Shown here piece by piece: positions 32,401-61,877 of a stretch of 64,000 nucleotides of DNA. The stretch is taken from assembly GCA_020635015.1 (NCBI GenBank), contig JACKAP010000006.1, positions 76,998 through 140,997 of the forward strand, given 5' to 3'. The stretch's first letter is position 1. The number at the start of each line of letters is the position of its first letter. The notes under the pieces are model-generated. The model worked only from the letters and a program-made list of their open reading frames with translations. It ran no database searches and was not told the DNA's origin. A program made the translations under genes and the position numbers. This stretch comes from Calditrichia bacterium. Lineage in GTDB: Bacteria > Calditrichota > Calditrichia > RBG-13-44-9 > J075.

Positions 32401-32855
32401 GTGACCTGGTATGTCTGAGCGCCTGCGAGAGCGGGGCGGGAAAGTTGGTGCGGGGTGAAGGGGTGATGGGAATGCCCCGGCAGTTCCTGGCCGCGGGCGC
32501 CCGCCGGGTGCTGATGAGCCAGTGGCTGGTCTCCGACCGCTTTAGCTCGCTGTTGATGCCGCTGTTTTACGAAGGAGCTATTGGGGAGCGTCAGCCCAAA
32601 GCGGTGGCGCTGCAACAGGCGAAGGTCGGCCTGCTGAGCCAGGTATCCGAAGAGCAATTGCGCTATGCCCATCCGTTTTTCTGGGCCGGTTTTACCCTCT
32701 ACGGCGAGCCGGAGATTGCGCTCGGCCCGCGCTTTCCGCTCTTTTCCGGAAACTGGTGGTTTGTCCTGCTGCTGGGCGCTATTGCCGGTGGGTATTTTGT
32801 CGCCGTCTGGCGCCGAATGAACGGCACCCCCCATTCTCGCGACCGGCGCACCTAG
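29496..32855 (+). CDS. TPR-repeat CHAT-domain (caspase-like) protease, N-terminal signal and C-terminal TM anchor
   Basis: Long TPR-like helical repeats. CHAT catalytic region HYSTHSF...LVCLSACESGAGK. C-terminal WWFVLLLGAIAGGYFVAVW. GTG 29496 precedes the signal-like LYPLMLVAGISTLFAQ; the ORF opens at 29364. Confidence 0.85.
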   Translation: MKTNLFEIKRVLYPLMLVAGISTLFAQEPGQYEPDPADLSRLYTFMETIARDSVEVQIRAYRQFVTDHPEQERACWHLLDFMVMGGQLEEARDFFQEQALVPAGRRNSLWMLARIYALEGNAAAALQTYREVFQNGAASFVLLDDFALFIVQNKLDLESEIAQLSISSAQQAMIRVEVLRRRGEVERVLTVLQETLPDYQTNKYLLHLAAYCHLNSGDEASALRLLEKGLGIARAENDRFMTAYYLTMMANVAGGNRGKAYWEEARKISEGLANLRLSINVYVASSFALEDKQAALGYMERAIEIATAIRSTPEIVSAWLLKAQLESDLENYNEALDAFVRTEQYLAQDGNEVHRYDFYLARGRFFHKLQLNQWARKDYETAYEWARQNGMLSYNYLALSRLADITLKEKEYERAIVLYRDFLNLHASKVRVSNRVYWRYKLAEAYQAQHKYAEAQQQFARVYQAADQIPFPVYKERMKAYALIQQVAILADQEDLKGASRLLNNDDLRQVSKDQQDVKIAYLMMQGRLYQQKEETDSAIVCLEEASRIIEAQRGQLKAEDLRVGFFSDKSKVYDELVSCYWQRYRHESQPEDLEQIYTALEMRRARVLRDLKFSGNKNLRRQSKDPLYQKYHAACNRLQALQRRIRLNPGLYSDLQLQLKTARQQVINTRLHLLNQYGSAAVEQQKPRLDELVSAMQLRQMSLLFYCIAENEAFVLVVNRGEPRVIALDAKLATIDSKVDSLLRPLHEMPPGGMVGIPFRAKLANELYQILIAPVKAQVDLEEQVMIIPDLALAGLPFDILLSQMPSREVYTPADPDTDYRDSFLLHQHAILYAPSSWVVRSASSAAVDSSAILLLANPFSNDLSRPSENALPVNRQLEYFEPLIYADYEAQMIKSRCEQVEVFQHQQATLKVIDSLGSRYGVHHYSTHSFIDNEFGAFSGLFFALSDDSTDDGLLTVYKIADLELNCDLVCLSACESGAGKLVRGEGVMGMPRQFLAAGARRVLMSQWLVSDRFSSLLMPLFYEGAIGERQPKAVALQQAKVGLLSQVSEEQLRYAHPFFWAGFTLYGEPEIALGPRFPLFSGNWWFVLLLGAIAGGYFVAVWRRMNGTPHSRDRRT

Positions 32856-36526: not shown

Positions 36527-37903
36527 TCAGCCCTTCGCGCTTCGCCCTTTGCCATCTTTTTCCAGCCAGGGCGGCAGCGCTTCCAACTGCTGCACGTATT
36601 CGGTGTTTTCCGCCTGGCGGATGACGGCAATGCTTTTATCCTCACCGATCATCACCACATTGGGACGGAGGTGGATGAACTGCATCCATTGGGTGTTGTT
36701 GTAGGCCCCGACCGGAGAGATCACCACCTGGTCGCCTTTCTCCAGGTAGGGCATCTGGATGGTGTTGCAGATCTCATCGATCTGCATGCACAGCGGTCCG
36801 TAGATGTGATGAGCCTCCTGATTCAACTGGGCTTTATTCTCCGCCGGCAGGATGGTATGGTCGTACCAAAAGGAGGTGAACAGCAGATTGACCCCGGCGT
36901 CCAACACCAGCATGCGCATGCCGCTGTTCATGCGCTTGGTGGCGACCACCTGGGCGATCAGGAAGGCCGACTCATCCACCAGCCCCCGCCCGGTCTCCAG
37001 GAAGAGGGTGGGCAACTGCGCTGCCGGGAAGGCGTTGAGCAGCTCCGCGGTGATCGCCTCGGCATACTGGTCGAAGGAGGGGATGGTCTGGTAGGCCGCC
37101 GGGTAGATCGACGCCTTGAGCTTGTTGTGCGAGGCGAAGCCGCCTCCGATATCGATATAGCGGATCTTGATGCTCTCTGCCTGCTGGATCTGCTGAACAA
37201 AGCCGATCAGCTTGCGCACCTGTTCGCGGTAAACCTCGGCGTTGAGCACAAAGGTGCCGATATGGGAATGGATCCCCACCAGGCGCAGCCACTTGCTGGC
37301 GGCGATCCTCCGTGCCGCCTCGAAGGCCTGCCCGCTCTCCATGTTGAGGCCAAATCGATCCCACGACTGCAAAGTAGAGAGGTTCATATTGACCCGCATG
37401 CCGATCTCGACTTCCCGGCCGAGGTCCTCGGCAATCTGTTCGATCTCGTAAATTTCATCGAAGCTGTCGATGTTGATCATCGCTCCATCCTGAACCGCGA
37501 TTTGCAGTCCGCGAGGCGACTTGTACGGTCCGTTGAAGATGATCCGGTTGCCGGGATTGCCCATCTTGCGGGCCAGTTCATATTCCCATTCCGAGACCAC
37601 CTCCGCCCAGGCGCCGAGCTGGTGATAGCTCCGGCATACCGCCTGCAGATAGTTGGTCTTGTAGCTCCAGGCGAAATGTACTTTGGGATATCGTTTAGAG
37701 AAAGCCCGGTAGGCATTCTGGAAGATCTCCTTCAGCCGCGGGTAGGAATAGACAAAGAGCGGGGAGCCGTAGGCGGCGGTCAACTCGCTGACCGGGATGC
37801 CTTCGATATTGTCCTGAAAGCCGCTGGTCTGCGGTGTGCCGAATTTGCTGGTAATGCCCATTTGCCGCCGCGATATCGCCGGTTTTTGATAGGTCTTTTT
37901 CAT
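36527..37903 (-). CDS. PLP-dependent decarboxylase, Orn/DAP/Arg decarboxylase family (fold type III)
   Basis: PLP-lysine context HFAWSYKTNY. IDIGGGFAS, FLETGRGLV and GPLCMQIDE motifs. 458 aa. Confidence 0.85.
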   Translation of the reverse strand: MKKTYQKPAISRRQMGITSKFGTPQTSGFQDNIEGIPVSELTAAYGSPLFVYSYPRLKEIFQNAYRAFSKRYPKVHFAWSYKTNYLQAVCRSYHQLGAWAEVVSEWEYELARKMGNPGNRIIFNGPYKSPRGLQIAVQDGAMINIDSFDEIYEIEQIAEDLGREVEIGMRVNMNLSTLQSWDRFGLNMESGQAFEAARRIAASKWLRLVGIHSHIGTFVLNAEVYREQVRKLIGFVQQIQQAESIKIRYIDIGGGFASHNKLKASIYPAAYQTIPSFDQYAEAITAELLNAFPAAQLPTLFLETGRGLVDESAFLIAQVVATKRMNSGMRMLVLDAGVNLLFTSFWYDHTILPAENKAQLNQEAHHIYGPLCMQIDEICNTIQMPYLEKGDQVVISPVGAYNNTQWMQFIHLRPNVVMIGEDKSIAVIRQAENTEYVQQLEALPPWLEKDGKGRSAKG

Positions 37904-38994
37904 GATGTCGGTCCTTCATCGGTTGAATGTTGCACAGGATTCGTCTCCGGATAATGGATCTCACCCCGGGAGAGCAGGCTGTCCAGCTGGCTGATTTCGC
38001 CAATCAGATCGATGGTGTAATGGGTGAAGAGTTTGCCCACCTGGTAATCGTTGACCGGTTCCAATTTCCGCCCCCGGGCCAGATCAACGTAATGGGCGGG
38101 CAGGTTGATCTCTGCCGCCACTCCGAGGTAGATCCAGGCGGGAAAGCGCGGGTTGATCTCCAGGATATAGAGTTTCTGGTCGCGCCGGGCCAGCAGGGTC
38201 TCCATCTCCAGCGCGCCCCGCCAGCGAGTGGCGCTAATGAAGCGGCGGGTGAGGTCGAGTAGCTGCTCGTTGCGGATACTCACCCCCGCCCAGCCCTTGC
38301 CCTTGTCGGTGAGCAGGATCTTCTTCATGCACAGGGCGGACACAATGCCGCCGTCGCCCCCGCCCAGCGCCGCTGCATTGAATTCCTCGCCCTGGATATA
38401 TTCCTGCACCAGCAGCGGGTAGCCCCACTTGTTGGCCAGCAGGCGGGCGTAAGAGAGCGCCTGAGGCTGGTCGTGGCAAATGTAAGCGTCGTAATAGATC
38501 CCTTTGACCAGCAGCGGGAAGCCGACCTCCCGCAGCGCTGCCTCCAGATCGGCCAGATGGTGCACCGTCACAGTGCGTGGTACCGCAAAATCAAATTTAC
38601 GGCCCAGTTCCGCCAGGTTGGCTTTGGAGCGGGCCTCGATCTGCGCAGTGGTGGGGATGAACATCCGGGTCCCGCTCTCCCGCAATTCAGCTTCCAGCCC
38701 GGCAAAGTGGGCGATCTCCGAATCCAGGGTGGGGATGATGATGTCGATGGGCGTTCTCTGCCGGATCTCATCCAGGCGCTGCTGCAGCGCCTCCCGCCCT
38801 TCCCGGGGGTAGGGCAGCAGATAGCCGGCACGGAACAGCTCGCGGTCGAACAGCCCGGGATCGATGGCGTCATAGCCGAGGGCGATCAGGCGATAATCCT
38901 GCCCGCCCTGGGCCATCAGACTGCGCGCCACCGCCACACCCGGACCGGGACTCTCCACGGCGTTGACCCCGGTAATGGCTATGGTCAGACTCAT
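37900..38994 (-). CDS. ATP-grasp domain ligase
   Basis: FPLLVKG, PLLVQEYIQGEEF and LYILEINPRFPAW motifs. 4-nt overlaps with both neighbouring genes. Confidence 0.8.
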   Translation of the reverse strand: MSLTIAITGVNAVESPGPGVAVARSLMAQGGQDYRLIALGYDAIDPGLFDRELFRAGYLLPYPREGREALQQRLDEIRQRTPIDIIIPTLDSEIAHFAGLEAELRESGTRMFIPTTAQIEARSKANLAELGRKFDFAVPRTVTVHHLADLEAALREVGFPLLVKGIYYDAYICHDQPQALSYARLLANKWGYPLLVQEYIQGEEFNAAALGGGDGGIVSALCMKKILLTDKGKGWAGVSIRNEQLLDLTRRFISATRWRGALEMETLLARRDQKLYILEINPRFPAWIYLGVAAEINLPAHYVDLARGRKLEPVNDYQVGKLFTHYTIDLIGEISQLDSLLSRGEIHYPETNPVQHSTDEGPTS

Positions 38995-39269
38995 ATGCTG
39001 TTCTCCTGTGTGTCAAAACTGACCAGGCCGAGGTTGATCAGCATTGGGATGAATTCGCGGATATCCTTGTCGAGTACCCGTTCGTCCACTTCGTAAACTT
39101 CCAGCAGGCGGGTTTTGATCGCCTCGGTATCGGTGATGCCTTCTTTGAGGCACTGGATGATGTCTCGGGCAACCTCATTGGTGCTGAGGATTTCCCCGGT
39201 GCCGGGATCGAATACGAACCCGGTATCGCTGATGATGAATTGCTGTAATCTTTCCACATTGTAGCGCAT
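38991..39269 (-). CDS. PqqD family-like small protein (peptide chaperone / RRE-like)
   Basis: 92 aa. FVFDPGTGEILSTNEVARDIIQCLKEGITDTEAIKTRLLEVYEVD...DIREFIPMLINLGLV has the PqqD-family pattern. Confidence 0.65.
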   Translation of the reverse strand: MRYNVERLQQFIISDTGFVFDPGTGEILSTNEVARDIIQCLKEGITDTEAIKTRLLEVYEVDERVLDKDIREFIPMLINLGLVSFDTQENSI

Positions 39270-39287
39270 GGCGAATTCTCCTGAAGA

Positions 39288-39719
39288 TTAGGGGGATACC
39301 AGGTAAGCCCAGATATAGGCGGTCATGCCGTCGAGCTTATAGCCGAGTTTATTGCATACCGCGTCGTCTTCGGCACAGTCTTTTTTTTCCAGCTTGCGCA
39401 GCCAAACCGCGGCCTCGAAGGTGCCGTTGAGGTATTCCGGATCGACCACGATCTCCTTCACCGTCACCCCCTGTTTGATCGAAAAAGAGAGATGCTTGCC
39501 CTCTTCCAGGGTATTGGTCACATTGGGCGGGTAAAGCGAGACCCCCAGCCACATGTCCTTGCCGCTGACGTGGGCAGTGAGGGTTAGTTTGAGGGTGTTG
39601 CCGCCGTTTTTGGTGATCTCGTAGGAGAACCCGATCTGGTCGGTCTGGGCGGCCGCCCCATTTCCAAAGGCGCTGATTAACGCCAGCAGGATGATAAAAA
39701 TTAATGTGTTACGCTTCAT
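39288..39719 (-). CDS. small secreted protein, unknown function
   Basis: 143 aa. Signal peptide MKRNTLIFIILLALISAFGNGAAAQ. Two Cys near the C-terminus. Operon position supports that it is coding. Confidence 0.6.
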   Translation of the reverse strand: MKRNTLIFIILLALISAFGNGAAAQTDQIGFSYEITKNGGNTLKLTLTAHVSGKDMWLGVSLYPPNVTNTLEEGKHLSFSIKQGVTVKEIVVDPEYLNGTFEAAVWLRKLEKKDCAEDDAVCNKLGYKLDGMTAYIWAYLVSP

Positions 39720-39731
39720 AGTGATGACTCC

Positions 39732-40604
39732 TTAGAATTTATAGAACAAACCAAATGTATAGTACACAGCACTGAACTGAAATCCCTGGTCGTCATAGCG
39801 CTCATATTGGACATCCGCATAAGGCTTGAGGTGCTTGCCGAGCTGGTAGTAGGCGGTGAGCCCCAGGTTGGTGGTCAGCATCACGTCGGTGGTGTAGAGC
39901 ACCAGCGTCGAGGGGTTATAAGAAAGTACCTGTTCCCCGAAAATTCCGTAAGCAGTAAGGGTGAGTTTGCGGGGCACGGGGTACCAGGTTAGCTCCGGAT
40001 GCACGCTCCAGCCCCATTTGATATTCTGCACCGGCTGTTCATAAAACGAAAAATGCCCGGAAGCCTGCGCCCAGACATAATAGTTGAACAGGGCCATGCC
40101 CCAGGTGGCGGAGACTTCGGCTTTATCGGCCAGGTCGTTAGGAAAATAGTGCAGATTAAGATCCGCATAATAGCGCCCCGCCGGAGAAAACCAGGAAAGG
40201 GAGAGGTAGCCGGGAAAGGTCTGATCGACCGCCGGAAAAGGCGCCCACAGCGCGCTGCCCTCCAGGGCCAGGGTAAAGCTGCCGCGATGGCGAGTATAGA
40301 AGGTGCGGGCCAGGCTGACCCGCAGGTGGTCGCTGCGGGCCGGCTCGCCGTCGGTTTTGTCGACCGTGATGTCGGTATGGCGCCAGCCCAAGGCCAGCCA
40401 CCAGGTCTTGGCTCGATTGTTATAATAGATGTCGCCCCTTCCGGAGCGAAATACGTCGACCAGGCTGTTTTCGTAGATTCCGTAGACGCCTTTCGCCGCG
40501 ACCGTGAGCGAGGACTGGGCAGATGCCTTGCCGCTCAGGAACAGCGCCAGGCAGATCAGTTGTAAAACCGTAAATTGCAGTAAGCGGGTCGATAAGCGTT
40601 TCAA
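39732..40604 (-). CDS. predicted outer-membrane beta-barrel protein
   Basis: Signal peptide ending ASAQ. Alternating aromatic/polar strands. C-terminal ...YYTFGLFYKF, the terminal-Phe OMP signature. Confidence 0.6.
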   Translation of the reverse strand: MKRLSTRLLQFTVLQLICLALFLSGKASAQSSLTVAAKGVYGIYENSLVDVFRSGRGDIYYNNRAKTWWLALGWRHTDITVDKTDGEPARSDHLRVSLARTFYTRHRGSFTLALEGSALWAPFPAVDQTFPGYLSLSWFSPAGRYYADLNLHYFPNDLADKAEVSATWGMALFNYYVWAQASGHFSFYEQPVQNIKWGWSVHPELTWYPVPRKLTLTAYGIFGEQVLSYNPSTLVLYTTDVMLTTNLGLTAYYQLGKHLKPYADVQYERYDDQGFQFSAVYYTFGLFYKF

Positions 40605-40611
40605 ACCGTAT

Positions 40612-42765
40612 TCACTCCCCGGGTGTCTGTTCGTAATACTCTATTTTATCTAACTTTAATTCGACGCCATTCTCCTGGAGATAATTGAATCCTTCCCCTT
40701 TGCGGAACACCAGTTGGCGGGTGCCAGCCTTGCGCTTGAACGTAAAATGCCATCTGATAAATCCGCCTCGGATCTGCTGGGCCTGCTTGAGCAGAATGGT
40801 TTCGTCGGGCAGTTTTTCCAGGGAATTGTCGATCTCCAGGAAGCAGCGCAGGCCGAAAATGGTAAACAGGTCCAGGAAGTGCACCAGGTAACGGGGCAGG
40901 GTGTAATCCAGGGAGGTCTGGCTGGTCCAATGAAGTTTGCCCGGCGCTTCCGGAAACACCACATCGGTGAGGGTCTGGGCCAGCAGAAACAGGGCGCTGT
41001 TGCGCTTTCCCTGATACTTTTTCAGCGAGAGCACTCCTTCAGACAGGTCGAAATAGAGCCGGTCGCCGTCCTGGTTTTCCAGGCAGAGATTGTTGTAAAA
41101 ATCATTGTGCAGATGCCAGGATTCCTCAGAGCTCAACTTGCCGCTGTTCAGGATCAACTGCCATTTTTTGTAAATTTCATCGAAGAAATATTTGCTGTAG
41201 TCGGCATCATAGCGCAGGTTCTCCACCCGGTCATCTTTGTTGAGGATGCCCTTGGGAAGCAGGCGGTCGGCGGCGTTATCCTGTTTGATCAGCAGATTGG
41301 AAAATTCAAAATAAAGTGCCGGGGCGCCGATGTAATCCTGAGCCTGAAACTGCAGGTGGATATGCGGGTAGGGAGAACGGCCGGAATTGCCGCAGTGCCC
41401 GATTTTATCACCTTTACTGACGGTATCCCCTGCTTTGACGCTGATCGAATCCTTCTGCAGGTGAGCGATGCAGCTGTAGAAATAGGGGGCATGCTCGATG
41501 ATCACGCAGTTGCCCCAGTTGTCGCGGGGATTGGCCTGCCCGGGGCGGTTGTCATAGATGTCATTTTTGACCCGAACGACCGTGCCGTCGGCCGGGGCGA
41601 GCACCAGGGCGTTGTAGCAATAGTAATCGCTCAGCTTCTCCCCGCTGCCGCTGTAAATGCTGCCGCCGGTGTCGCGGATCATGAAGTCGATCCCATAAGC
41701 CCATTCGTCTTTATGGGTATATTCGCCTTTGAATGCCTGGCTCACCACCCAGTCGCTGTAAAAGGGCAGGGAGATCGCCACCCCGTAGCGCCGCCACATC
41801 TTCAGGTTTTCCCGGTAGCTGCTCAGGTTCTCCTCAGGTGATAGCGGGTGGGAACTCAATTCCAGCCCCAGCGAGGGATGGAGGCGCATCTTTAAGGCAA
41901 ATACCACCAGTAGCACCGAGAGGTTGAAAGACAGCGCAAGAGAAGAGAGATAAAACGGCATGGCGATCTCCAGCGCGATCAGGTTCATGTAAACGATAAA
42001 GATGCCGAAGATCGCCAGCAGGAGGCTGGATAGATTCGGGATCAGGAACACCCCGCCCAGCGCCAGGGCGGTGAGCATATAGTTGAAGCCAAGATATTGG
42101 CTGTGAATGAACGCTTCGCTCACCCCGAAAAATTCGTGGATGTAATACCCGCCCAGCCAGCCGATCCCGATCAGCAACAGCGAGAGGCGGGAATAAATCA
42201 GCAGCCCGGCGGCGATCAGGATGCCTGAGATCGGGTTGATGGTGAAAAAGATCGCCCCGAGGTTCTTGAAAAACAGGTTGAGGCTAAGGGGCAAGGCATG
42301 CAGGGAGACGTCAAACACCTGCCAGCGCACCTCCGAAGGGGTCAGGTAGCCGCTGCCAAAGCTGGCGATGATGGCGGTGTAGATGATCAGATTGAAGGGG
42401 AGGCTCATGTAGGGCAGCCCGTAGGCGCTCAAGAAGGTTTTGATCCACATGGTGAAGACGGTCATCAGGATCACCGCAATGATGACCAGGATGACCAGGT
42501 GGAGGGAGACATCGTAATAAAGGCTCAGGCCTAACGCCACCAGAATACCGTTGAAGCCCCATAAGCCTTGCCGTATCTCCTGGCGGCTGAATCCCAGCAG
42601 GTAGGCGACCAGGTTGGCAATCAGCGCCCCTCCCAGGCCGAAGATGCCGTGGGAGGGAATGACCAGGGTTGCCAGCAGGATAATCAATCCCAATGCCTGA
42701 TGTTGTGAAAAGAATATGAGCGAATAGCTTTTTAAGGTACTCTCTGTCCAGAATTTCGCATTCAT
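40612..42765 (-). CDS. fusion protein: urea-transporter (UT)-like polytopic membrane domain + M23/LytM domain + unknown C-terminal domain
   Basis: The N-terminal ~310 aa carry UT-family motifs (IFFSQHQALGL, QGLWGFNGILVALGL). The M23 region has GNSGRSPYPHIHLQF. The last ~220 aa have no motif I recognise. Confidence 0.8.
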   Translation of the reverse strand: MNAKFWTESTLKSYSLIFFSQHQALGLIILLATLVIPSHGIFGLGGALIANLVAYLLGFSRQEIRQGLWGFNGILVALGLSLYYDVSLHLVILVIIAVILMTVFTMWIKTFLSAYGLPYMSLPFNLIIYTAIIASFGSGYLTPSEVRWQVFDVSLHALPLSLNLFFKNLGAIFFTINPISGILIAAGLLIYSRLSLLLIGIGWLGGYYIHEFFGVSEAFIHSQYLGFNYMLTALALGGVFLIPNLSSLLLAIFGIFIVYMNLIALEIAMPFYLSSLALSFNLSVLLVVFALKMRLHPSLGLELSSHPLSPEENLSSYRENLKMWRRYGVAISLPFYSDWVVSQAFKGEYTHKDEWAYGIDFMIRDTGGSIYSGSGEKLSDYYCYNALVLAPADGTVVRVKNDIYDNRPGQANPRDNWGNCVIIEHAPYFYSCIAHLQKDSISVKAGDTVSKGDKIGHCGNSGRSPYPHIHLQFQAQDYIGAPALYFEFSNLLIKQDNAADRLLPKGILNKDDRVENLRYDADYSKYFFDEIYKKWQLILNSGKLSSEESWHLHNDFYNNLCLENQDGDRLYFDLSEGVLSLKKYQGKRNSALFLLAQTLTDVVFPEAPGKLHWTSQTSLDYTLPRYLVHFLDLFTIFGLRCFLEIDNSLEKLPDETILLKQAQQIRGGFIRWHFTFKRKAGTRQLVFRKGEGFNYLQENGVELKLDKIEYYEQTPGE

Positions 42766-42965: not shown

Positions 42966-43369
42966 GTTGATGGGTTAATGGGGAAAAGGATAAAGGATAA
43001 AGGATAAAGGATAAAGGATAAAGGTTGAAGATACTGGATACTGGATACTGGATAAAATAAAAATGCTTGTTCAGGTGTGAAAATCGGGTTCATTTAAGCA
43101 TCCAGCATCCAGCATCCAGCATCCAGCATCCAGCATCCAGCATCCAGCATCCAGCATCCAGCATCCAGCATCCAACATCCAACATCCAGCATCCAACATA
43201 TACTCATCAGACAAAGCCATCCGCAAAAACTTGCAAATTTCCTATTGACCTGACCCGATCCCTTCAACATATTTCCGCCGCAATGAAAAATCAACCCATC
43301 AACCCATCAACCCATCAACCCATCAACCCATCAACCGATCAACCCATTAACCCATCAACCCATCAACCC
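42966..43369. repeat. composite simple-repeat element (left copy): (GGATAAA)n-(GGATACT)n-unique core-(GCATCCA)n-spacer-(CAACCCAT)n
   Basis: Read directly. It ends exactly at the ATG (43370) of the S9 peptidase gene. Inverted partner at 45296-45527. Confidence 0.9.
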
Positions 43370-45295
43370 ATGAAAACATTACCCTATGGCACCTGGCCAT
43401 CACCGATTACCGCCGATCTCATCGCTGCCGCCGGGCGGCGGCTGGGCGATATCGCCGTCGATGGAGATTCGGTTTACTGGATCGAAAGTCGCCCGGAGCA
43501 GGAGGGGCGCAATACCATCATGATGTGGAACCCCGGCGGGGAGTTTCGGGAAGTTACCCCGCCGCCTTTTAATGTGCGCTCCCGGGCCCATGAATACGGC
43601 GGCGGCGCTATGGCGGTGTATGGCGGCCGGGTGTTCTTTGTGAACGATGCAGATCGCCAGATCTATCACATTCCTCCCGGCGGATCCCCGCAGGCGCTGA
43701 CCAGCGAATCCGATACCGCCTATGCCGATATGATCCTCGATCCGGCGCGCCAGCGGCTGATCCTGGTGCAGGAGCATTATTTTGATGACAGCCGCCCGCC
43801 CCGCGACATGCTGGCCGTGCTTTCCCTGCGCGGCCGCCCGGGATATTGTGAGCCGCTGGTGAGCGGGAACGATTTCTATGCCAGTCCCGCCCTGAGCCGC
43901 GACGGCCGGCAGCTTTGCTGGCTGAGCTGGGACCATCCGGCAATGCCCTGGAACGGTACTGAATTATGGGTGGCGGAGGTAGGGGATGACGGTCAACTGC
44001 GCCGCCGGCGCCGGATTGCCGGAGGCGCGCAGGAGTCGGTGTTCCAGCCGCAATGGGGTACAGACGGCACCCTGTATTTTGCTTCCGACCGCAGGGAGGG
44101 CTGGTGGAACCTCCATGCCTGGGATGGGCACACCATCCGGCCGGTGCTGGAGATGGCTGCGGAGTTCGCCTTGCCCCAGTGGGTTTTCGGAATGTCGACC
44201 TATTGTATTTTGAATGAGCGTTGTATCGCCGCTGCGTACACCCGGGAGGGGCGCTGGGAGATGGGGCTGATCGATCCGCAGCGCGGTGATCTGGAGGCCC
44301 TGGCGCTGCCCTTTAGCTATATTACCCAGGTTCGCGGCGCCGGGGAGCGGATCGCTTTTGTCGGCGCTGCGCCGGATGCAGCGGAGGCGGTTTATACCCT
44401 GGAACTGCCGTCGCAGCACCTGCAGATGTTGCGGAAATCCAGCGATCTGGAGGTGGATGCCGGCTATATTTCCACCCCGCAGGCAGTGAGTTTTGAAAGT
44501 GATGGCGAGGAGGTGCACGGCTTTTTCTATCCTCCCAGCAATCGCGATTTCAGCGCTCCGGAGGACGAAAAACCTCCGCTGATCGTATTCATTCACGGCG
44601 GTCCCACGGCGGCGGCGAACAGCGGATTGGATCTTCGCAAACAATTTTGGACCAGCCGCGGCTTTGCGGTGCTCGACGTCAACTACCGGGGCAGCACCGG
44701 CTATGGGCGGGCGTACCGGGAAAGCCTCAACGGCCGTTGGGGGGTGGCCGATGTGCAGGATTGCGTCAACGGCGCCCGGCGTCTGGCGGCGCAGCAGCAG
44801 GCGGATCCGGAAAGGCTGCTGATCCGCGGCGGCAGCGCCGGGGGATTCACCGCCCTGGCGGCGCTGACTTTTCACGATTGTTTCCGGGCCGGGGCGAGCT
44901 ATTATGGCATCAGCGATCTGGAAGCGCTGGAGCAGGAGACCCACAAGTTTGAATCGCGCTACAATCATCAATTGATCGCCCCCTATCCCGCCGGTAAGCC
45001 AGTCTACCGCGAACGCTCGCCGCTGCACCATGCCGGGGATCTGAACCGCCCGGTGATCTTCCTGCAGGGCCTGGAGGATCGGGTGGTGCCCCCCGGTCAG
45101 GCGGAAAGAATGGCCCACGCCCTGCGTAAACGCGGCGTGCCGGTGGCTTATCTTACCTTTGAGGGCGAAGGGCACGGCTTCCGCAAGCCGGAAACCATCC
45201 GCCGCGCCCTGGAAGCGGAGTTGTTCTTTTATGGAAGGGTGCTGGGATTCGAGCCCGGGGAGAAGCTTGATCCGGTGCAGATAGATAATTTGTGA
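43370..45295 (+). CDS. S9 family serine peptidase (prolyl oligopeptidase / acylaminoacyl-peptidase type)
   Basis: Beta-propeller N-terminal half. Catalytic nucleophile motif IRGGSAGGFTALAAL and C-terminal ...EGEGHGF. The ORF part upstream of 43370 is translated repeat DNA. Confidence 0.88.
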   Translation: MKTLPYGTWPSPITADLIAAAGRRLGDIAVDGDSVYWIESRPEQEGRNTIMMWNPGGEFREVTPPPFNVRSRAHEYGGGAMAVYGGRVFFVNDADRQIYHIPPGGSPQALTSESDTAYADMILDPARQRLILVQEHYFDDSRPPRDMLAVLSLRGRPGYCEPLVSGNDFYASPALSRDGRQLCWLSWDHPAMPWNGTELWVAEVGDDGQLRRRRRIAGGAQESVFQPQWGTDGTLYFASDRREGWWNLHAWDGHTIRPVLEMAAEFALPQWVFGMSTYCILNERCIAAAYTREGRWEMGLIDPQRGDLEALALPFSYITQVRGAGERIAFVGAAPDAAEAVYTLELPSQHLQMLRKSSDLEVDAGYISTPQAVSFESDGEEVHGFFYPPSNRDFSAPEDEKPPLIVFIHGGPTAAANSGLDLRKQFWTSRGFAVLDVNYRGSTGYGRAYRESLNGRWGVADVQDCVNGARRLAAQQQADPERLLIRGGSAGGFTALAALTFHDCFRAGASYYGISDLEALEQETHKFESRYNHQLIAPYPAGKPVYRERSPLHHAGDLNRPVIFLQGLEDRVVPPGQAERMAHALRKRGVPVAYLTFEGEGHGFRKPETIRRALEAELFFYGRVLGFEPGEKLDPVQIDNL

Positions 45296-45527
45296 GTGGA
45301 TGGGTGGATGGGTTGATGAGTGGATGGGTGGATGGGTTAATGGGTTGAGATGCTGGATGCTGGATGCTGGATGCTGGATGCTGGATGCTGAAATGAACCC
45401 GATTTTCGCACCCGAACAAGCATTTTTATTTTACCCAGTATCCAGCACCTTCAACCTTTATCCTTTATCCTTTATCCTTTACCCTTTATCCTTTATCCTT
45501 TATCCTTTTCCCCATTCACCCATCAAC
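45296..45527. repeat. composite simple-repeat element (right, inverted copy)
   Basis: Starts 1 nt after the S9 peptidase stop. It is the reverse complement of the left element, including the unique core (4 substitutions in ~56 nt by my count). Confidence 0.9.
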
Positions 45528-49478: not shown

Positions 49479-49482
49479 GGGG

Positions 49483-49604
49483 GACGAAGGGTGAAGGATG
49501 AAGGATGAAGGATGAAGGATGAAGGATGAAGGATGAAGGATGAAGGATGAAGGATAAAGGATAAAGGATGAAGGATAAAGGATGAAGGATGAAGGATGAA
49601 GGAT
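49483..49604. repeat. (GGATGAA)n / (GGATAAA)n heptamer array filling the whole intergenic spacer
   Basis: About 17 heptamer units lie between the MerR-family stop (49478) and the next start (49605). Confidence 0.9.
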
Positions 49605-49991: not shown

Positions 49992-51149
49992 TTATCCGAA
50001 CAAGCGGGAGTCTGACACCTCCGGCTCCTGGCTGGAGACGGTTTCCATGTAGGTCTTAATGAATGAAGGGCGGAAGATCTTGCGGTCGAAACCGATATTG
50101 CCCTCATCAGCCAGATTGCGGATCAATTGTTTATAGGATTTGAAGGCCCGGACTTTCACATAAAACGGAATCCAGCGCAGGGGAAACTTCAGCGGTCCCA
50201 GCACCAGCCGCTGCCGCCCGAGATGCTTTTCCAGGTTACCGGGGTTGAGGTAGTTCAGCAGATGGGCCGCCCCCTGATCGACCAGCGCCCGGTATCCTTT
50301 CAGCATCGCCCGTTCGTGAAGGAGATGCTCTTCGATTTGCTGGTGAATATAGTTCAAGCGCCGGTCGGCTTCTTCCGGGGTGATGTCGGCATCATACAGA
50401 TAAGCCTGAAGCTCTTCCGGGGTGGATAAATGCAGGGGCTGGTCGCTGATGACCGTGGCGATTTCCATAAATTGCCGGCGGAATTTGGCCGCTTCTTTAG
50501 CCAGTTCGATCAGGGCGTTAAATAAAATCTCTTCGGTCTTGCGGGGGTTGTAGGGGGGACCCGCTCTTTCCGCAGGTGGTGCCGGCTGCGCCGGGGCCGG
50601 GGGAGCTTCCGGGAAAATGGCCGCGAGCATGGCGCGGATCTCCTCTCGGCTGACCGCGCGGCGGGTGAGGGCGTCATCCAGCGCACCGCGCATCTCGCTT
50701 TCCCGAAGTTCACGCTTTTCGCTGTGGAATTTTTCAGCCAGCTGCTGCAGCAGATGCACCAATTGGCGAATATCTTCCTGGAAGGGATTGAGGTAAGGAG
50801 CCGTTTCATCCGCCCTTCCATTGCGGTGAGGCGCTTCCGGGCGAAATTGATATTCCAGCAAAAATTCCCCGATTTGAATCTTGTCTCCGTTCTGCAATTG
50901 ATAGGGCTGCTCGGCAGCCAGCTTGATCTGGTTGAGATATGTCGCATTGGCGCTTTTGCAATCCACCAGATAATATACCGCGCCCTTCTGCCGAATCATG
51001 GCGTGGCGCCGGGAAACCACTTTCTCCCGGTCTTGCAGTTGCAGGGTGTTGGATGAATGGCGGCCGATCGAGATCAATGCCTGTTCGAACTCCGCCTCCT
51101 GCTGCCAATTTATATCGGATGCCTTCCGGATGTTAAATCTCGCGGGCAT
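49992..51149 (-). CDS. FHA domain protein with Pro/Ala-rich linker and uncharacterised C-terminal domain
   Basis: FHA region ISIGRHSSNTLQLQDREKVVSRRHAMIRQKGAVYYLVDCKSANATYLN. Linker PEAPPAPAQPAPPAE. Confidence 0.75.
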   Translation of the reverse strand: MPARFNIRKASDINWQQEAEFEQALISIGRHSSNTLQLQDREKVVSRRHAMIRQKGAVYYLVDCKSANATYLNQIKLAAEQPYQLQNGDKIQIGEFLLEYQFRPEAPHRNGRADETAPYLNPFQEDIRQLVHLLQQLAEKFHSEKRELRESEMRGALDDALTRRAVSREEIRAMLAAIFPEAPPAPAQPAPPAERAGPPYNPRKTEEILFNALIELAKEAAKFRRQFMEIATVISDQPLHLSTPEELQAYLYDADITPEEADRRLNYIHQQIEEHLLHERAMLKGYRALVDQGAAHLLNYLNPGNLEKHLGRQRLVLGPLKFPLRWIPFYVKVRAFKSYKQLIRNLADEGNIGFDRKIFRPSFIKTYMETVSSQEPEVSDSRLFG

Positions 51150-51201
51150 GCTTACGCTCCTTTCCCAAAAGTGTGCAAACTATGAACATTCCCCGCCGGT
51201 T

Positions 51202-52662
51202 TTACCGATCGCTTTTTTTAGCATAATCGGGATACCAGGCCTTCATACAGTCGTCGCAGATGCCATGACTGAACTCTGCTTCTGAATGTTCTTGCAAATA
51301 CAGTTCCAATTGATTCCAATATCCCTTATCATCACGTATTTTTTTACATGAGGAGCAGATTGGAATCAATCCCCGGAGCGTTTTGATTTTGGTCAGGGCG
51401 TCACGCAGTTCGCGGATCAACTGTTCTTTGGCAGCTTCCGCCTCTACTCGGTCAGTGACGTCTCGGATGATCGACAGCACCGCTTCTGACCCGCAGGCCA
51501 TGATGCGGTTTTCATAGAATCGTTTTTTGCCATGCACCTGCAGGTCGAATTCGAACACCTGCACCGTGCCGGAATACAGCGCTTTGGAAATATAGCCGAG
51601 GGTTCGCTGGTTGATTTCGCCGGGCAGCAGGTCGTGCAGTCTTTTCCCCGGCAGGTCATCGCCGAACAACGGAATGGTGTTCTTGGGCATCTTGCAGGCC
51701 AGCACTGTGCCGTCCTGGTTTAGCTGCATCATCAGATCCGGTATGGCGTTGAGCAGGGCGCGGTTGGTGACTTCGCTTTGCTGGAGGGATTTCAGGAAGT
51801 TCTCCAGGTTTTCCCGGGAGTTTTTTTCTTTGTGCACGCGCTCGTTCAATATCAGGCGTTCCAGCCCTCCGGCGGTTTGCCGGGCGATGTCGGTCAGCAG
51901 GCGCAGATCGCTGTTGCCGAACTTCTTGGCGGATTTATCCTCGATATACAATACCCCCATCAGGGAATCCTTGCTGCGCAGGGGAACGCAGATGGCGGAG
52001 TGCATTTCCTCCGCCAGGAGCGTATCGGCCGGGTCGGTGCCCGGGTTATATATTGCCGCCTCCCCGTTGCCTAGCACTTGCGCCACCAGCGGCCGGCGGT
52101 AGGAGTCGGAGGCCCCATAGTAAATCTGGCAGTAGGGCATCGGGTCCTGGTCGAACAGCAGGATGGCGCCTCCATCGGCGCCGGTCGATTGACAGGACAG
52201 CTTAATCACCCACTCACAAATGGTATCGATATCATTGGTCTGGTTGAATTTCTGGCTGATCTTGTTGATGATCAGATAGTGCAGATCTACCGTGTTGCTG
52301 GGATCCACGCTGTCGGCCTTCGCTGCGGTTTCGCCGGTGGGCTGATCCTGCGGGATGTCGGCAGCAAAGGTCAGGATGGTAAACCCGACCCGGATCTGGT
52401 CCTGATCGGCCAGGCGGATGCGTTTGATCCGCTCGTCGTTGACATAGGTGTGATTCCGGCTTCCGAGATCTTCAATGTAGTAATGGCCTTTCTCGCGGAA
52501 GATCCGGGCATGACGGCGGGAAACCGTCTCGTCATCGATCGCCAGATCATTTTCGATCTGCTGGGAAAGATCATCTTTCCCGATATATATCTCCTCCTCG
52601 GAGAAGGTGTACGCTTCTTCGCTACCGTTTGGCAGGCGTACCTTTAACTTGGCCATGGGCAT
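51202..52662 (-). CDS. FHA-GAF-PAS signalling protein with C-terminal Cys-rich (CxxC...HxxCxxC) module
   Basis: FHA region IYIGKDD...VSRRHARIFREKGHYYIEDLGSRNHTYVN. GAF-like middle and PAS-like region. Ends LIPICSSCKKIRDDKGYWNQLELYLQEHSEAEFSHGICDDCMKAWYP. Confidence 0.75.
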   Translation of the reverse strand: MPMAKLKVRLPNGSEEAYTFSEEEIYIGKDDLSQQIENDLAIDDETVSRRHARIFREKGHYYIEDLGSRNHTYVNDERIKRIRLADQDQIRVGFTILTFAADIPQDQPTGETAAKADSVDPSNTVDLHYLIINKISQKFNQTNDIDTICEWVIKLSCQSTGADGGAILLFDQDPMPYCQIYYGASDSYRRPLVAQVLGNGEAAIYNPGTDPADTLLAEEMHSAICVPLRSKDSLMGVLYIEDKSAKKFGNSDLRLLTDIARQTAGGLERLILNERVHKEKNSRENLENFLKSLQQSEVTNRALLNAIPDLMMQLNQDGTVLACKMPKNTIPLFGDDLPGKRLHDLLPGEINQRTLGYISKALYSGTVQVFEFDLQVHGKKRFYENRIMACGSEAVLSIIRDVTDRVEAEAAKEQLIRELRDALTKIKTLRGLIPICSSCKKIRDDKGYWNQLELYLQEHSEAEFSHGICDDCMKAWYPDYAKKSDR

Positions 52663-52769
52663 CCCTTTGCTGATTCGATCATAATATATCAAAATTTACC
52701 ACACCGCCAAAGAGAATGCAAAAAGGCTTGATTTTTCTTGAATGATCAATCTGAGAGCAGTGTAGGTCT

Positions 52770-55708: not shown

Positions 55709-57028
55709 GTGAAAACCGCCTGTATCATCGGCGCCGGCGCCTCCGGTATTACCGCCGCGAAAACCTTCCGGGAGCAGGGAATTGATTTTGACTGCTTTGA
55801 GAAAGGTTCCGGTATCGGCGGCAACTGGCGCTACGGAAACGACAACGGGATGTCTTCCGCCTACCGCTCCCTGCATATCATCTCCAGCAAGTGGAACATG
55901 CAGTATTCCGATTATCCCATGCCGGAAGATTTTCCCGACTACGGCCATCACAGCGATGTACTGCGTTATTTCGAGAATTATGTCGATCACTTTGGCATTC
56001 GCGAGACCATCCGCTTTCATTGCGAAGTGAAAGAGGTGACGCCGCACTCCCGGGATGGCTGGGAGGTGACCCTCGCAGGGGGCGAGCGCCGGAACTATCG
56101 TGCGGTGGTGGTGGCCAACGGCCATCACTGGAATCCCCGCTGGCCGGAATTTCCCGGAAGCTTTCACGGAGAAGCAATCCATTCTCATCATTATAAAACG
56201 CCCGAGGCCTTTGAAGACAAAAATGTGCTGATCGTCGGGATCGGAAATTCCGCCTGCGATATTGCGGTCGACCTCTCCCGCCTGGCCCGCACGGTGCATC
56301 TTTCTACCCGGCGCAGCGCCTATGTGCTTCCGAAATATGTGCTGGGAATTCCCAATGATCAATGGCTTCATCCGCTGTTCGATTATTTCCCGCTGGCCCT
56401 GCGTCGCACCGCCTTCCGGATATTGGCCTACATGACCGTTGGTAACCAGGAGCGCTACGGCCTGCCCCGGCCCCGCCACAAATTGTTGCAGGAGCATCCC
56501 ACTCTGAATCAGGAATTTTTGTCCTACGTGGGACACGGGCGGATCAAGATCAAACCGGATATCCGCGAACTGCAGGGGGAACGGGTGGGGTTCGTCGACG
56601 GCAGCAGTGAACCGTTCGATACGATCATTTATGCCACCGGCTATAACATCACCTTTCCGTTTCTGAAGCCGGAAGTGTTTACGGTGCAGGACAACCGGGT
56701 ACACCTTTACCGGCGGGTGATCGATCCGGAATTGCCCAACTTGTTCTTCCTGGGGCTGATCCAGCCCCTCGGGGCGATCATGCCCCTGGCGGAGTTGCAG
56801 GCCCGCTGGATCGCCGGGCTGCTGAACGGCGAGATGGCCCTGCCGGACGAAGGGCGGATGCGCCGCGATATCGAGGCCGATCGTTCCCTCCTGCGCCGCC
56901 GCTACACCGACTCCGCCCGCCATACCATCCAGGTGGATTTTTGGGATTATGTGCACCAACTGAAGCGGGAAATGCGGAAAGGGAAGAAGCTTGCTGATAG
57001 GAAAAGGAGGATGAAGGGTGAAGGATAA
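55709..57028 (+). CDS. flavin-containing monooxygenase
   Basis: FAD motif ACIIGAGASGITAAK, FMO motif FHGEAIHSHHYK and NADPH motif VLIVGIGNSACDIA. GTG start 2 nt after the RlpA-like stop. Confidence 0.85.
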   Translation: MKTACIIGAGASGITAAKTFREQGIDFDCFEKGSGIGGNWRYGNDNGMSSAYRSLHIISSKWNMQYSDYPMPEDFPDYGHHSDVLRYFENYVDHFGIRETIRFHCEVKEVTPHSRDGWEVTLAGGERRNYRAVVVANGHHWNPRWPEFPGSFHGEAIHSHHYKTPEAFEDKNVLIVGIGNSACDIAVDLSRLARTVHLSTRRSAYVLPKYVLGIPNDQWLHPLFDYFPLALRRTAFRILAYMTVGNQERYGLPRPRHKLLQEHPTLNQEFLSYVGHGRIKIKPDIRELQGERVGFVDGSSEPFDTIIYATGYNITFPFLKPEVFTVQDNRVHLYRRVIDPELPNLFFLGLIQPLGAIMPLAELQARWIAGLLNGEMALPDEGRMRRDIEADRSLLRRRYTDSARHTIQVDFWDYVHQLKREMRKGKKLADRKRRMKGEG

Positions 57029-57145
57029 AGGGCAAAGGATAAAGGGCAAAGGATAAAGGAATAACCTTGATTGACATTGGGACTGGATTTTGTTCTGTTT
57101 CAGCATCCAGCATCCAGCATCCAGTACAACCCATCAACCCATTTA
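57008..57145. repeat. composite simple-repeat element: (GGATAAAGG/GGATGAA)n-core-(GCATCCA)n-(CAACCCAT)n
   Basis: Same module order as the element upstream of the S9 peptidase gene. It overlaps the last codons and the stop of the FMO gene. Confidence 0.85.
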
Positions 57146-60842: not shown

Positions 60843-61790
60843 ATGTCCCCCAAAGTCCACGGCATCCATCACGTTACTGCCATGGCCGGCGATCCCCAGC
60901 AGAATGTCGATTTTTATGCCGGCATTCTCGGGCTGCGCATGGTCAAAAAGACCGTCAATTTTGACGATCCGTTCACCTATCATTTTTACTATGGCGATGA
61001 TGCCGGCAATCCCGGCACGATCATGACCTTTTTCCCCTGGAGCTCTGCCGGGATGCGCGGCCGGATCGGCAATGGTCAGTTGAGCGTCACCTCCTTTGCC
61101 GTACCCGAAGGTTCACTGACCTTCTGGGAGGCGCGCCTGAAAGCGCATCGGGTAAAGATCCGGGGTATTTCCGAACGGTTTTCGGAAACGGTGCTCTCGT
61201 TTGACGATCCGGACGGGCTGTTGCTGGAACTGGTGAGTTCGCCGGCCGAGCGCCGTCCGGGATGGGAGAACGGCAGCATTCCTGCCGATCATGCCATCCG
61301 TGGGTTTTACAGCGTCACCCTTTCCCTGGCGGCCTACGAGCGAACCGCCGGTCTGATGACCTCCACCCTGGGTTACCAGGCGGTGGAGGACGCAGACAGC
61401 CGCTTTCGCTATGAATCCGGGACCGGGGGCCCTGGTACCTATGTCGACCTGTTTTGCCAGCCTTCCGCGCCCCGCGGCACGATGGGCGTGGGCGCGGTGC
61501 ACCACGTGGCCTGGCGGATCAACGACGACGAGTCCCAGCTGCAGCTTCGCCGGGAATTGCTCGCCTCCGGATACCAGGTCTCGCCGGTGATGGACCGGAA
61601 CTATTTCCATTCGATCTACTTTCGGGAGCCCGGCGGGGTGCTGTTCGAGGTGGCGACCGATCCCCCGGGTTTTGCAGTTGATGAACCGGCCGAGAGCCTG
61701 GGCCAGTCGCTGAAGCTGCCCCCCTGGCTGGAGAAGGAGCGGGCGTTGATCGAACAGAACCTGACGCCGGTAACGGTGCGGAAACCCTGA
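60843..61790 (+). CDS. VOC-family ring-cleaving dioxygenase (MhqO-like, two glyoxalase domains)
   Basis: HGIHHVTAMAGDPQQNVDFYAGILGLRMVKKTVNFDD, with a second VOC repeat GAVHHVAWRI. Confidence 0.75.
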   Translation: MSPKVHGIHHVTAMAGDPQQNVDFYAGILGLRMVKKTVNFDDPFTYHFYYGDDAGNPGTIMTFFPWSSAGMRGRIGNGQLSVTSFAVPEGSLTFWEARLKAHRVKIRGISERFSETVLSFDDPDGLLLELVSSPAERRPGWENGSIPADHAIRGFYSVTLSLAAYERTAGLMTSTLGYQAVEDADSRFRYESGTGGPGTYVDLFCQPSAPRGTMGVGAVHHVAWRINDDESQLQLRRELLASGYQVSPVMDRNYFHSIYFREPGGVLFEVATDPPGFAVDEPAESLGQSLKLPPWLEKERALIEQNLTPVTVRKP

Positions 61791-61877
61791 TGAAGGGAAA
61801 AGGATGAAGGATAAAGGATGAAGGATAAAGGGAAGAAGAATAGCCCCATTGTTCACGATGGGGAGGAGGAGTAGCCC

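Follow-up and report, generated by a model that had tools for sequence, protein, structure and literature searches.

Censuses of signal transduction in bacteria count kinases, cyclases, c-di-GMP enzymes, DNA-binding domains and PP2C phosphatases as outputs, and usually set aside those sensors that apparently have none. In sensor histidine kinases the PAS domain is coupled to DHp by a signalling helix of invariant length, which starts at the PAS DIT(E/D)RK motif and carries heptad-spaced hydrophobic residues, while one-component regulators usually end in a C-terminal nucleic-acid-binding domain. FHA domains occur in FHA-GAF sensors, which combine a phosphothreonine reader with a ligand sensor and end in a cyclase, SpoIIE/PP2C, HATPase or sigma54 AAA+ output, in the actinobacterial regulators GarA/OdhI and FhaA/FhaB, the last also being a two-FHA-gene arrangement, and in TagH/Fha1, where a low-complexity Pro/Ala linker connects the N-terminal FHA domain to a helical PF20232-type domain at the C-terminus. 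TagH binds phosphothreonine on its kinase, is controlled in known systems by a Ser/Thr kinase and a phosphatase, and can have roles beyond the T6SS (PMC13584744).

The window analysed here, which is the whole 64-kb stretch of Calditrichia DNA, encodes two adjacent FHA proteins, one of them (protein 1) a sensor ending in a compact Cys4(His2) module and the other (protein 2) a relative of TagH/Fha1. Our preferred reading, to which we assign a probability of roughly 0.4, is that of a lineage-specific Calditrichota two-gene signalling unit formed by a sensor with a Cys4 output and a diverged TagH-type scaffold.

Organization and conservation of the gene pair

The two consecutive minus-strand FHA genes described in the initial annotation were confirmed: both open reading frames are real (51202–52662 and 49992–51149), run in the same direction 52 nt apart, and encode proteins that match PF00498 above its gathering score (20.7 bits), Pfam gathering thresholds having been applied to both. 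Gene 1 (51202–52662, minus strand), identified from its reading frame and Pfam domains as an FHA-GAF-PAS sensor with a C-terminal Cys4 module, encodes 486 residues from the first ATG or 484 from the second (52656), the latter as in MCB0290509.1 (P0292), an identical protein recorded as 'FHA domain-containing protein [Calditrichaeota bacterium]'. Gene 2 (49992–51149, minus strand) encodes a TagH/Fha-like protein of 385 residues, as judged from its reading frame, TIGR03354 match and homologs. The 52-nt spacer between them (51150–51201, minus strand) contains a Shine-Dalgarno-like GGAAAGGAG ahead of gene 2 and no terminator-like site on the minus strand. Just upstream of gene 1, a consensus scan marks TTGGCG-16-TATATT, preceded by the TG of an extended −10 element (52683–52710, minus strand), as a tentative promoter-like site.

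The same order is found, with a 52-nt spacer, in a lineage whose pair is 89% identical (L006) and, with a 34-nt spacer, in a Calditrichia metagenome-assembled genome (L007; 59% identity for protein 1 and 50% for protein 2), so that the pair has been kept in three Calditrichota lineages. The flanks, which are housekeeping-type genes, are syntenic as well. These observations support a two-gene FHA unit. No homolog of protein 2 is encoded near the more distant protein 1 orthologs (L013 and L014, ~44% identity), nor does a protein 1 lie beside the T6SS-embedded homologs of protein 2; the coupling is therefore either young or facultative.

Domain structure of protein 1

The FHA domain of protein 1 (residues 27–93; 52384–52584, minus strand) scores 69.6 bits against PF00498. 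We take the canonical binding and structural residues to be the G-R, S-x-x-H and N of Rad53 FHA1 (G69/R70, S85/H88 and N107). Protein 1 keeps S48, H51 and N70 of this set but has G28-K29 in place of G-R, with Lys29 at the position of the phosphate-contacting arginine. A lysine is found there in all five protein 1 orthologs, in contrast to the arginine of the aligned FHA-GAF-cyclase paralog P0298. Because of this replacement, phosphothreonine binding by protein 1 is uncertain, although by domain both proteins would be phosphothreonine readers.

The GAF-like and PAS-like regions proposed to follow the FHA domain proved to be a GAF domain (residues 144–266; 51865–52233, minus strand), recognized by PF01590, PF13492 and PF13185 above their gathering scores (GAF, 45.9 bits versus a threshold of 22.4), and a PAS domain (residues 304–406; 51445–51753, minus strand), matched by PF08448 (PAS_4) at 27.3 bits versus 23.1. 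Pfam and NCBIfam scans at E ≤ 1 revealed no HisKA/HATPase, GGDEF/EAL, cyclase, PP2C, sigma54-AAA or HTH domain. The nearest paralogs, which share the FHA-GAF body (23–35% identity over 53–87% of the length), carry an adenylate cyclase, SpoIIE phosphatase, HATPase or sigma54-AAA domain in the corresponding position; protein 1 differs from them by its additional PAS domain and by a 50-residue Cys4 module instead of the enzymatic or AAA+ output, and the initial description of a compact Cys/His end replacing a kinase or cyclase is thus borne out.

PAS and module are joined by a linker (residues 401–435; 51358–51462, minus strand) that begins with the DVTDR motif at the C-terminal end of PAS and reaches up to the first cysteine. 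It is predicted to be helical, with heptad-spaced hydrophobic residues (positions −20, −17, −13, −10, −7 and −4), and its length of exactly 35 residues is shared by 126 of 136 module proteins. The likeness to the PAS-to-DHp helix, which in the family includes the DIT(E/D)RK motif at the PAS end, stops there: module proteins have no DHp/CA core after the linker, and neither an H-box nor a G-box.

The C-terminal Cys4(His2) module

Alignments and a motif scan delimit the module to residues 429–478 (51229–51378, minus strand), which read LRGLIPIC436SSC439KKIRDDKGYWNQLELYLQEH459SEAEFSH466GIC469DDC472MKAWYP, and its motif (nt 51247–51357) is the sole copy in the window. The four cysteines of the 4-Cys/1-His motif originally described (Cys436, Cys439, Cys469 and Cys472) are 100% conserved, as are P−2, D+9, G+11 and W+13; instead of one histidine there are two, His459 and His466, both highly conserved. 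The spacing is C436-x2-C439-x29-C469-x2-C472, with a Cys-to-Cys span of 37 residues in all 282 family sequences, and identity across phyla amounts to ~65–70%. The module is terminal, with a median of 14 residues beyond the last cysteine. Its second knuckle is CPxC in the family consensus, and an internal pseudo-repeat (IC-xx-C-KK, twice) is visible. A conserved basic patch comprises CKKIR and the KK past the last cysteine, and an invariant DD follows the basic residues; on average, the module carries a net charge of −0.47. An AlphaFold2 model of the monomer, computed from 21 sequences and confident in only two of the five models, predicts a β-α-α-β-α topology with a pLDDT of 84.5.

The module matched nothing in Pfam, NCBIfam, PADLOC or the PDB, a fold search with the predicted model gave no match, and literature searches by motif strings and descriptive terms returned nothing that characterizes it. 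The C-terminal region of protein 1 therefore maps to no characterized domain in these resources, in keeping with the earlier remark that the motif has no defined function. Weak profile matches to the Rad50 zinc hook (E 0.5–1.4) were taken as noise, and the analogy was discarded. PADLOC matched neither protein 1 nor protein 2, and the pair is accordingly not a known defence system.

A census of the module and its partners, of the kind proposed at the outset, retrieved 23,982 representatives at E ≤ 1e-3 (19,716 at E ≤ 1e-10). In 102 matches the partners are exclusively input domains, namely PAS (76), GAF (14), REC (12) and HAMP (5), as well as CHASE, MASE6, 7TM and PilJ; the 25 partner families listed include no DNA-binding family, and no GGDEF, HK, HD-GYP, sigma54 or cyclase motif was found in 282 module proteins. 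Matches to EAL came from a loose regular expression and are not meaningful, since no EAL Pfam family occurs among the partners. Named matches belong mostly to anaerobic sediment lineages (Thermodesulfobacteriota, Desulfobacterales and Calditrichia), and a search of plasmids with the module gave one weak match, in Dongshaea. The gene neighbourhoods of four short module proteins share no recurrent partner, and with neighbours so heterogeneous no target can be named. A glutaredoxin gene adjoins one small module ORF. In L015 another such ORF, a 77-residue 'standalone' one, is preceded by an AAA_14/DUF4143 gene and a long REC-PAS gene, and may therefore be a split remnant rather than a true standalone protein.

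As judged from these architectures, the module is most likely a widespread signal-output domain, occupying the output slot of tens of thousands of sensors, and its output most likely a regulated protein–protein contact and not catalysis or DNA binding. It could instead be a sensor itself, a rubredoxin-like Fe(Cys)4 or redox-labile Zn(Cys)4 site reporting oxygen, oxidants or metal, with signalling by oligomerization alone. Rubredoxin likewise has two CxxC knuckles separated by 29 residues, with CPxC as the second, and a spacing of ~29 residues recurs in zinc ribbons and in the rubredoxin-like regulatory domain of mycobacterial PknG; the dominance of anaerobic sediment lineages and the glutaredoxin neighbour would also suit a redox or metal sensor. 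On the other hand, neither rubredoxin and zinc-ribbon HMMs nor the fold search link the module to these families, its predicted topology is helical, and it always follows input domains, REC included, through a fixed-register linker, at the place where paralogs have enzymatic outputs, all of which makes a sensory role unlikely. We consider very improbable a DNA- or RNA-binding zinc finger, which would turn protein 1 into a phospho-dependent one-component regulator of transcription or RNA. The conserved basic patch, the dimeric coiled coil expected ahead of the module and the usual C-terminal placement of such domains in one-component regulators speak for it, and nucleic-acid binding had been raised in the initial annotation; it is not favoured because the module has a net charge of about −0.5 and no DNA-binding family is listed among its partners. 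The invariant DD directly after the basic residues, the heterogeneous neighbourhoods devoid of an obvious target operon and the lack of detectable similarity to known nucleic-acid-binding fingers point the same way. The module also differs from the ZAS anti-sigma motif (H-x3-C-x2-C) in having H466-x2-C469-x2-C472, and the zf-HC2 model does not match it; that model does match another protein of the window (28374–29270).

Protein 2 as a divergent TagH/Fha-type protein

The FHA domain of protein 2 (residues 26–94; 50868–51074, minus strand; 67.4 bits against PF00498) contains all of the canonical residues (G29-R30, S46, H49 and N68), which are invariant in a five-sequence family alignment, and its putative binding of phosphothreonine is well supported by this complete set. 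Of the phospho-Thr-dependent pair initially envisaged, phosphothreonine binding is supported for protein 2 and uncertain for protein 1: the alignment check of the phosphopeptide-binding residues found them complete in the former, and the latter with the Ser, His and Asn but with Lys for Arg.

The FHA domain and Pro/Ala-rich linker had been correctly recognized; the ~190-residue domain that follows, initially taken to be free of any recognizable motif, appears to be a divergent T6SS_FHA_C-type domain (residues 190–385; 49995–50582, minus strand). Against PF20232 it scores 17.7 bits (E 0.003) and thus misses the gathering score of 23.7, which the 50%-identical ortholog of L007 exceeds (25.8 bits); two T6SS-embedded homologs score 18.7 (P0124) and 16.7 bits (P0125), and a full-length scan of P0122 gave no match. 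TIGR03354 (TagH) aligns with protein 2 over model positions 14–215 of 420, with 84.1 bits (E 1.7e-23) against a curated cut-off of 120.25, and the T6SS-embedded P0124 and P0125 likewise stay below the cut-off, at 80–82 bits. Over its full length protein 2 is 35–36% identical to proteins that head T6SS clusters (in P0124 and P0125 followed downstream by tssJ-tssK-tssL-tssM-tagF-tssA), and such first genes of canonical T6SS clusters are its only distant full-length homologs. This identity as a divergent TagH/Fha-type protein changes the biological frame of the locus. Other searches added little: a profile built from the protein 2 alignment found one locus only in genome contigs and a single unrelated FHA match in metagenome contigs, tblastn against plasmids gave generic FHA similarity, and an AlphaFold2 model from five sequences was unusable (mean pLDDT 41).

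While the architecture is like that of TagH/Fha1, both scores are under the curated cut-offs (84 versus 120 bits and 17.7 versus 23.7 bits), the gene lies outside any T6SS cluster seen, with tagE, tagG and tagF absent nearby, and its partner gene is an FHA-GAF-PAS sensor. Among solved structures and NCBIfam models, GarA/OdhI and FhaA/FhaB match the FHA domains of both proteins best, but the likeness is limited to FHA: the other domains differ, and the pair has no linked PknA/B-type kinase or PstP phosphatase.

Relation to T6SS and to threonine phosphorylation

No T6SS family was found among window ORFs of at least 90 residues, tblastn searches with TssJ, TssK, TssL, TssM, TagF and TssA gave a best E value of 0.07 in the window, and the 10 kb on either side of the pair in L007 contain no T6SS genes. 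Given this absence from the 64-kb window and the occurrence of the pair in two other lineages, protein 2 has the appearance of an orphan TagH that may have been co-opted. The PEGA Ser/Thr kinase that had been proposed as a partner does exist (18315–20753, with Pkinase and three PEGA domains) and is the only kinase in the window; it lies 30 kb from the pair, and proximity within 64 kb is all that ties them together. The window contains no detectable PP2C phosphatase, and neither kinase nor phosphatase was found linked to the pair.

Protein 2 might nonetheless serve as TagH for a T6SS located at another site of the genome, with protein 1 as an added input to the classical threonine-phosphorylation pathway gating its assembly. 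Its closest distant homologs head T6SS-i clusters, it matches the TagH and T6SS_FHA_C profiles, and known TagH proteins are under kinase and phosphatase control (PMC13584744). We find this doubtful, as T6SS core genes are missing from the window and from the surroundings of the pair in L007, gene 2 is flanked by housekeeping-type genes whose synteny is conserved, and all of the TagH-model scores are under curated cut-offs except that of the C-terminal domain of one ortholog. It is more doubtful still that the two FHA genes are simply neighbours that function independently of each other: this would account for distant protein 1 orthologs and protein 2 homologs occurring without each other, but is hard to reconcile with the retention of order, strand and 34–52-nt spacers down to 50–59% identity, and with the lack of a terminator-like site between the genes.

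Proposed mechanism

In the preferred two-gene signalling unit, protein 1 would be a cytoplasmic one-component-style sensor whose FHA domain docks onto a phosphorylated (or acidic) partner and whose GAF and PAS domains detect a small molecule or a redox signal. The rigid, fixed-register coiled coil would hand the state of the sensor to the C-terminal module, a putative metal-binding site of four cysteines and two histidines acting as an output by regulated protein–protein contact. Protein 2, probably co-transcribed with protein 1, would be a diverged TagH/Fha scaffold that has left its T6SS locus. Phosphothreonine sites made by a Ser/Thr kinase could bring the two FHA proteins together in a single complex. 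Within it, the sensor state of protein 1, through the Cys4 module, would modulate which components the TagH-like scaffold assembles or sequesters.

More generally, and tentatively, the module may define an undescribed class of output domain, present in some 20,000 or more protein families, in which a fixed-register coil from PAS, GAF, REC, HAMP or FHA domains leads to a metal-dependent protein–protein (or redox) output at a conserved target, wired in Calditrichota to a co-opted TagH. Despite its apparent output position in ~24,000 protein clusters, we found for it no family name, structure or literature. Once identified, its metal and target would give a function to many proteins now annotated as 'PAS domain S-box protein' or 'response regulator', mostly in anaerobic sediment bacteria. 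The reuse of T6SS accessory scaffolds has so far been based mainly on the hlyA phenotype of V. cholerae; an orphan TagH beside a sensor and away from T6SS genes would, if true, be a clean case of it.

Organization of the gene pair

The initial annotation described two consecutive minus-strand genes that each begin with an FHA domain, and this was borne out by the open reading frames and by Pfam matches above gathering scores to FHA (aa 27-93), GAF (aa 144-266) and PAS_4 (aa 304-406) in protein 1 and to FHA (aa 26-94) in protein 2. Gene 1 (51202-52662, minus strand) encodes 486 aa counted from the first ATG; the identical database protein (MCB0290509.1, P0292; "FHA domain-containing protein [Calditrichaeota bacterium]") has its start placed at the second ATG and comprises 484 aa. 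Gene 2 (49992-51149, minus strand) encodes 385 aa. The two genes are co-directional and separated by a 52-nt spacer, a GGAAAGGAG site precedes gene 2 and no terminator-like site was found between them on the minus strand. A sigma-70-like TTGGCG-16-TATATT element lies directly upstream of gene 1, and the unit is bordered by a MarR gene in divergent and a CMD-family gene in convergent orientation.

According to the initial annotation, loss of the FHA phosphopeptide-binding residues would refute a phosphothreonine-dependent pair. This does not apply to protein 2, which has all five hallmark residues (G29-R30, S46, H49 and N68). Protein 1 is a less certain phosphothreonine binder: it retains S48, H51 and N70 but has Lys29 where the phosphate-contacting Arg is expected. 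This lysine is conserved in all orthologs, and Arg is kept in an FHA-GAF-cyclase paralog.

Protein 2 is related to TagH

The region of about 190 aa in protein 2 in which no motif had been recognized proved to be of TagH type. The NCBIfam TagH model TIGR03354 matches the FHA domain and the region following it (84.1 bits, E 1.7e-23; cut-off 120.25), and PF20232 (T6SS_FHA_C; gathering score 23.7) matches the C-terminal domain of most family members, with 17.7 bits in protein 2 and 18.7 and 16.7 bits in the T6SS-embedded homologs. The gathering score is exceeded by a 50%-identical ortholog from a Calditrichia MAG (25.8 bits); a full-length scan of the close relative P0122 gave no match. Full-length homologs are very few: besides three close ones there are P0124 and P0125, which are 35-36% identical to protein 2 across 98% of its length and are both encoded directly upstream of tssJ(SciN)-tssK(VasE)-tssL(DotU)-tssM(IcmF)-tagF-tssA. 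The family alignment shares the C-terminal signatures LGPxKxPxRWxPFYV and FDRKIFRPSFI. Judged by these profile matches, T6SS-embedded homologs and signatures, protein 2 belongs to the TagH/Fha type as a divergent protein that scores below curated thresholds. It is a new orphan member of a known family; the FHA/TagH part of this analysis is incremental.

Ahead of the T6SS clusters starting with P0124 (L001, 115-2980; L002, 1-2896) lie genes for an integrase, a DDE transposase and AAA_30, which suggests that this island is mobile or recently inserted.

The C-terminal Cys4 module

A census of the C-terminal motif of protein 1 and its domain partners, proposed in the initial annotation, was obtained with an 81-position profile covering the module and its linker. 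Among 1.84 billion representatives clustered at 50% identity, it matched 23,982, 19,716 and 5,249 proteins at E-value limits of 1e-3, 1e-10 and 1e-30, respectively. The module is not rare: it is abundant in databases but unnamed, a "known unknown". Named matches come from MAGs of Thermodesulfobacteriota, Desulfobacterales, Desulfobulbaceae, Calditrichia, Bacteroidetes and Pseudomonadota.

Because the sequences used for its anatomy were top-scoring matches selected by regular expression, the figures describe the family core and not its fringe: in all 282 sequences the span between the first and last Cys is 37 aa, the median length of the tail beyond the last Cys is 14 residues, and 26 of the 282 have the module twice, as in REC-module-REC-module. 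Conservation is 100% for the four Cys, P-2 and W+13, at least 98% for G+11, D+9 and K+4, 92% for H+30 and 70-90% for H+23. A pseudo-repeat is visible between the two halves (I-C-x-x-C-K-K followed by a helix). The linker shows heptad-like hydrophobic positions, and in 126 of 136 proteins, including protein 1, exactly 35 residues separate the DIT.R motif at the PAS C-terminus from the first Cys.

Partners among the 102 top matches were input domains, namely PAS (76), GAF (14), REC (12) and HAMP (5), together with CHASE, MASE6, a 7TM region and PilJ, while some proteins consist of a transmembrane anchor, linker and module and nothing more. GGDEF, histidine-kinase, HD-GYP, sigma54 and cyclase signatures were found in none of the 282 module proteins. 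In the FHA-GAF paralogs that are nearest to protein 1 but not part of its ortholog group, the position of the module is taken by adenylate cyclase, SpoIIE/PP2C, HATPase or sigma54-AAA. Since it always follows the inputs, REC included, through a fixed-register helix and occupies the enzyme slot of these paralogs, the module is best read as a putative output module.

Unusual architectures are seen in P0146, which has two complete TM-anchor-module units in tandem, in P0148, which is REC-module-REC-module, and in P0180, which combines a membrane anchor, coiled coil and module but has no recognizable sensor domain. At another locus (L015, 258-5234), an AAA_14/DUF4143 gene and a gene for a 1049-aa REC-multi-PAS protein are followed by a 77-aa ORF that comprises a coiled coil and the module alone, and then by a glutaredoxin gene. 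The ORF may encode a genuine standalone module or a tail split off from the sensor upstream of it.

Other features of the window

Many intergenic tandem arrays of 7-8-nt units (49482-49604, 42985-43371, 45293-45508, 3207-3326, 5572-5622, 57008-57060 and 61789-61831; for example GGATGAA x17.6, AGCATCC x14.7, ATCAACCC x10 and CCTTTAT x7.7) flank genes, often in both orientations on either side of one gene, and yield IQHPASS-type heptad peptides in spurious ORFs. One lies just past the FHA pair, between MerR and CMD genes. Two inverted arrays of 18-22/40-nt repeats (TGTTTGCTCGCTTCGCTCGCGA...; 12297-12442 and 12486-12567) face each other across about 40 nt, just downstream of a GWxTD-domain gene and adjoining a BlaR1/M23-BlaI-like pair (12589-14632). 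A DnaA gene (15568-17037; DnaA_N, Bac_DnaA, Bac_DnaA_C) adjoins the segment of lowest GC (14001-16000, 0.47), and the chromosomal origin may therefore be nearby. A co-directional cluster (27768-32855) encodes an ECF sigma factor, a zf-HC2 anti-sigma protein and a 1163-aa TPR-CHAT protein. What looks like a peptide-modification (RiPP-like) locus (36527-42765, minus strand) encodes a PqqD-like (RRE) protein, an ATP-grasp enzyme, a PLP-dependent Orn/DAP decarboxylase, a fused urea-transporter/M23-peptidase protein and two proteins without a family match.

Discussion

TagH, a phosphorylated protein, binds phosphothreonine on its kinase TagE/PpkA. It promotes assembly of the T6SS, TagF sequesters it, and it binds phospho-TssL in Agrobacterium and, independently of the T6SS, also represses hlyA in V. 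cholerae (review PMC13584744). On the reading favoured here, the pair would form a signalling unit that depends on phosphorylation: protein 2, as a co-opted TagH scaffold, would work alongside a GAF/PAS sensor (protein 1) whose state would be expressed via the Cys4 module, a putative metal-binding output. Such a unit could involve a physical complex and depend on a kinase.

The weightiest alternative is that protein 2 is the classical TagH of a T6SS encoded elsewhere in the genome, as the position of its distant homologs at the head of T6SS clusters would allow. Pfam searches of every ORF of at least 90 aa detected no T6SS component in the window, and T6SS proteins of L001 gave only noise against it by tblastn (best E 0.07). 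The same Pfam searches revealed one Ser/Thr kinase (Pkinase plus three PEGA domains, 18315-20753) and no PP2C phosphatase. That the genes are adjacent but independent carries less weight, ranking third. A syntenic Calditrichia MAG locus (L007; PIG-L, DPBB/RlpA-like, FMO, SDR and GlgC) has the same pair, in which a spacer of 34 nt separates the protein 2 ortholog from a protein 1 ortholog (59% identity) that ends in ...LIPICSSCKKIRDDQGSW...SHGICEEC...; no T6SS gene lies within 10 kb. A second Calditrichota locus (L006, 89% identity) also retains the pair. However, no protein 2 homolog occurs near the protein 1 orthologs of about 44% identity (L013, L014), and protein 1 is absent beside the T6SS-embedded protein 2 homologs. 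The pairing is real but lineage-restricted. Beyond the pair, L007 (11200-18630) encodes two giant secreted proteins that are CotH-kinase-like (CotH, lamin-tail and FlgD-Ig), one bearing a T9SS Por_Secre_tail, which lack counterparts in the window.

Concerning the module, a role as redox or metal sensor ranks second among the alternatives. The module has the CxxC-x29-CxxC spacing of rubredoxin and, in its family consensus, also the CPxC second knuckle, so that a redox-active Fe site or redox-labile Zn site is a live alternative to the output role. Least weight falls on a nucleic-acid-binding finger, considered in the initial annotation: the mean net charge of -0.47 and the lack of shared features among the neighbourhoods of four module genes argue against a finger that binds DNA and controls a local regulon. 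The analysis favours a generic conserved cellular target, which the module would reach through protein-protein contact.

We give the module roughly one chance in three of representing a new output class. Multi-domain sensors like protein 1 are of a known kind, its output is undescribed, and the specialist interest lies in the role of the module in about 24,000 sensor families.
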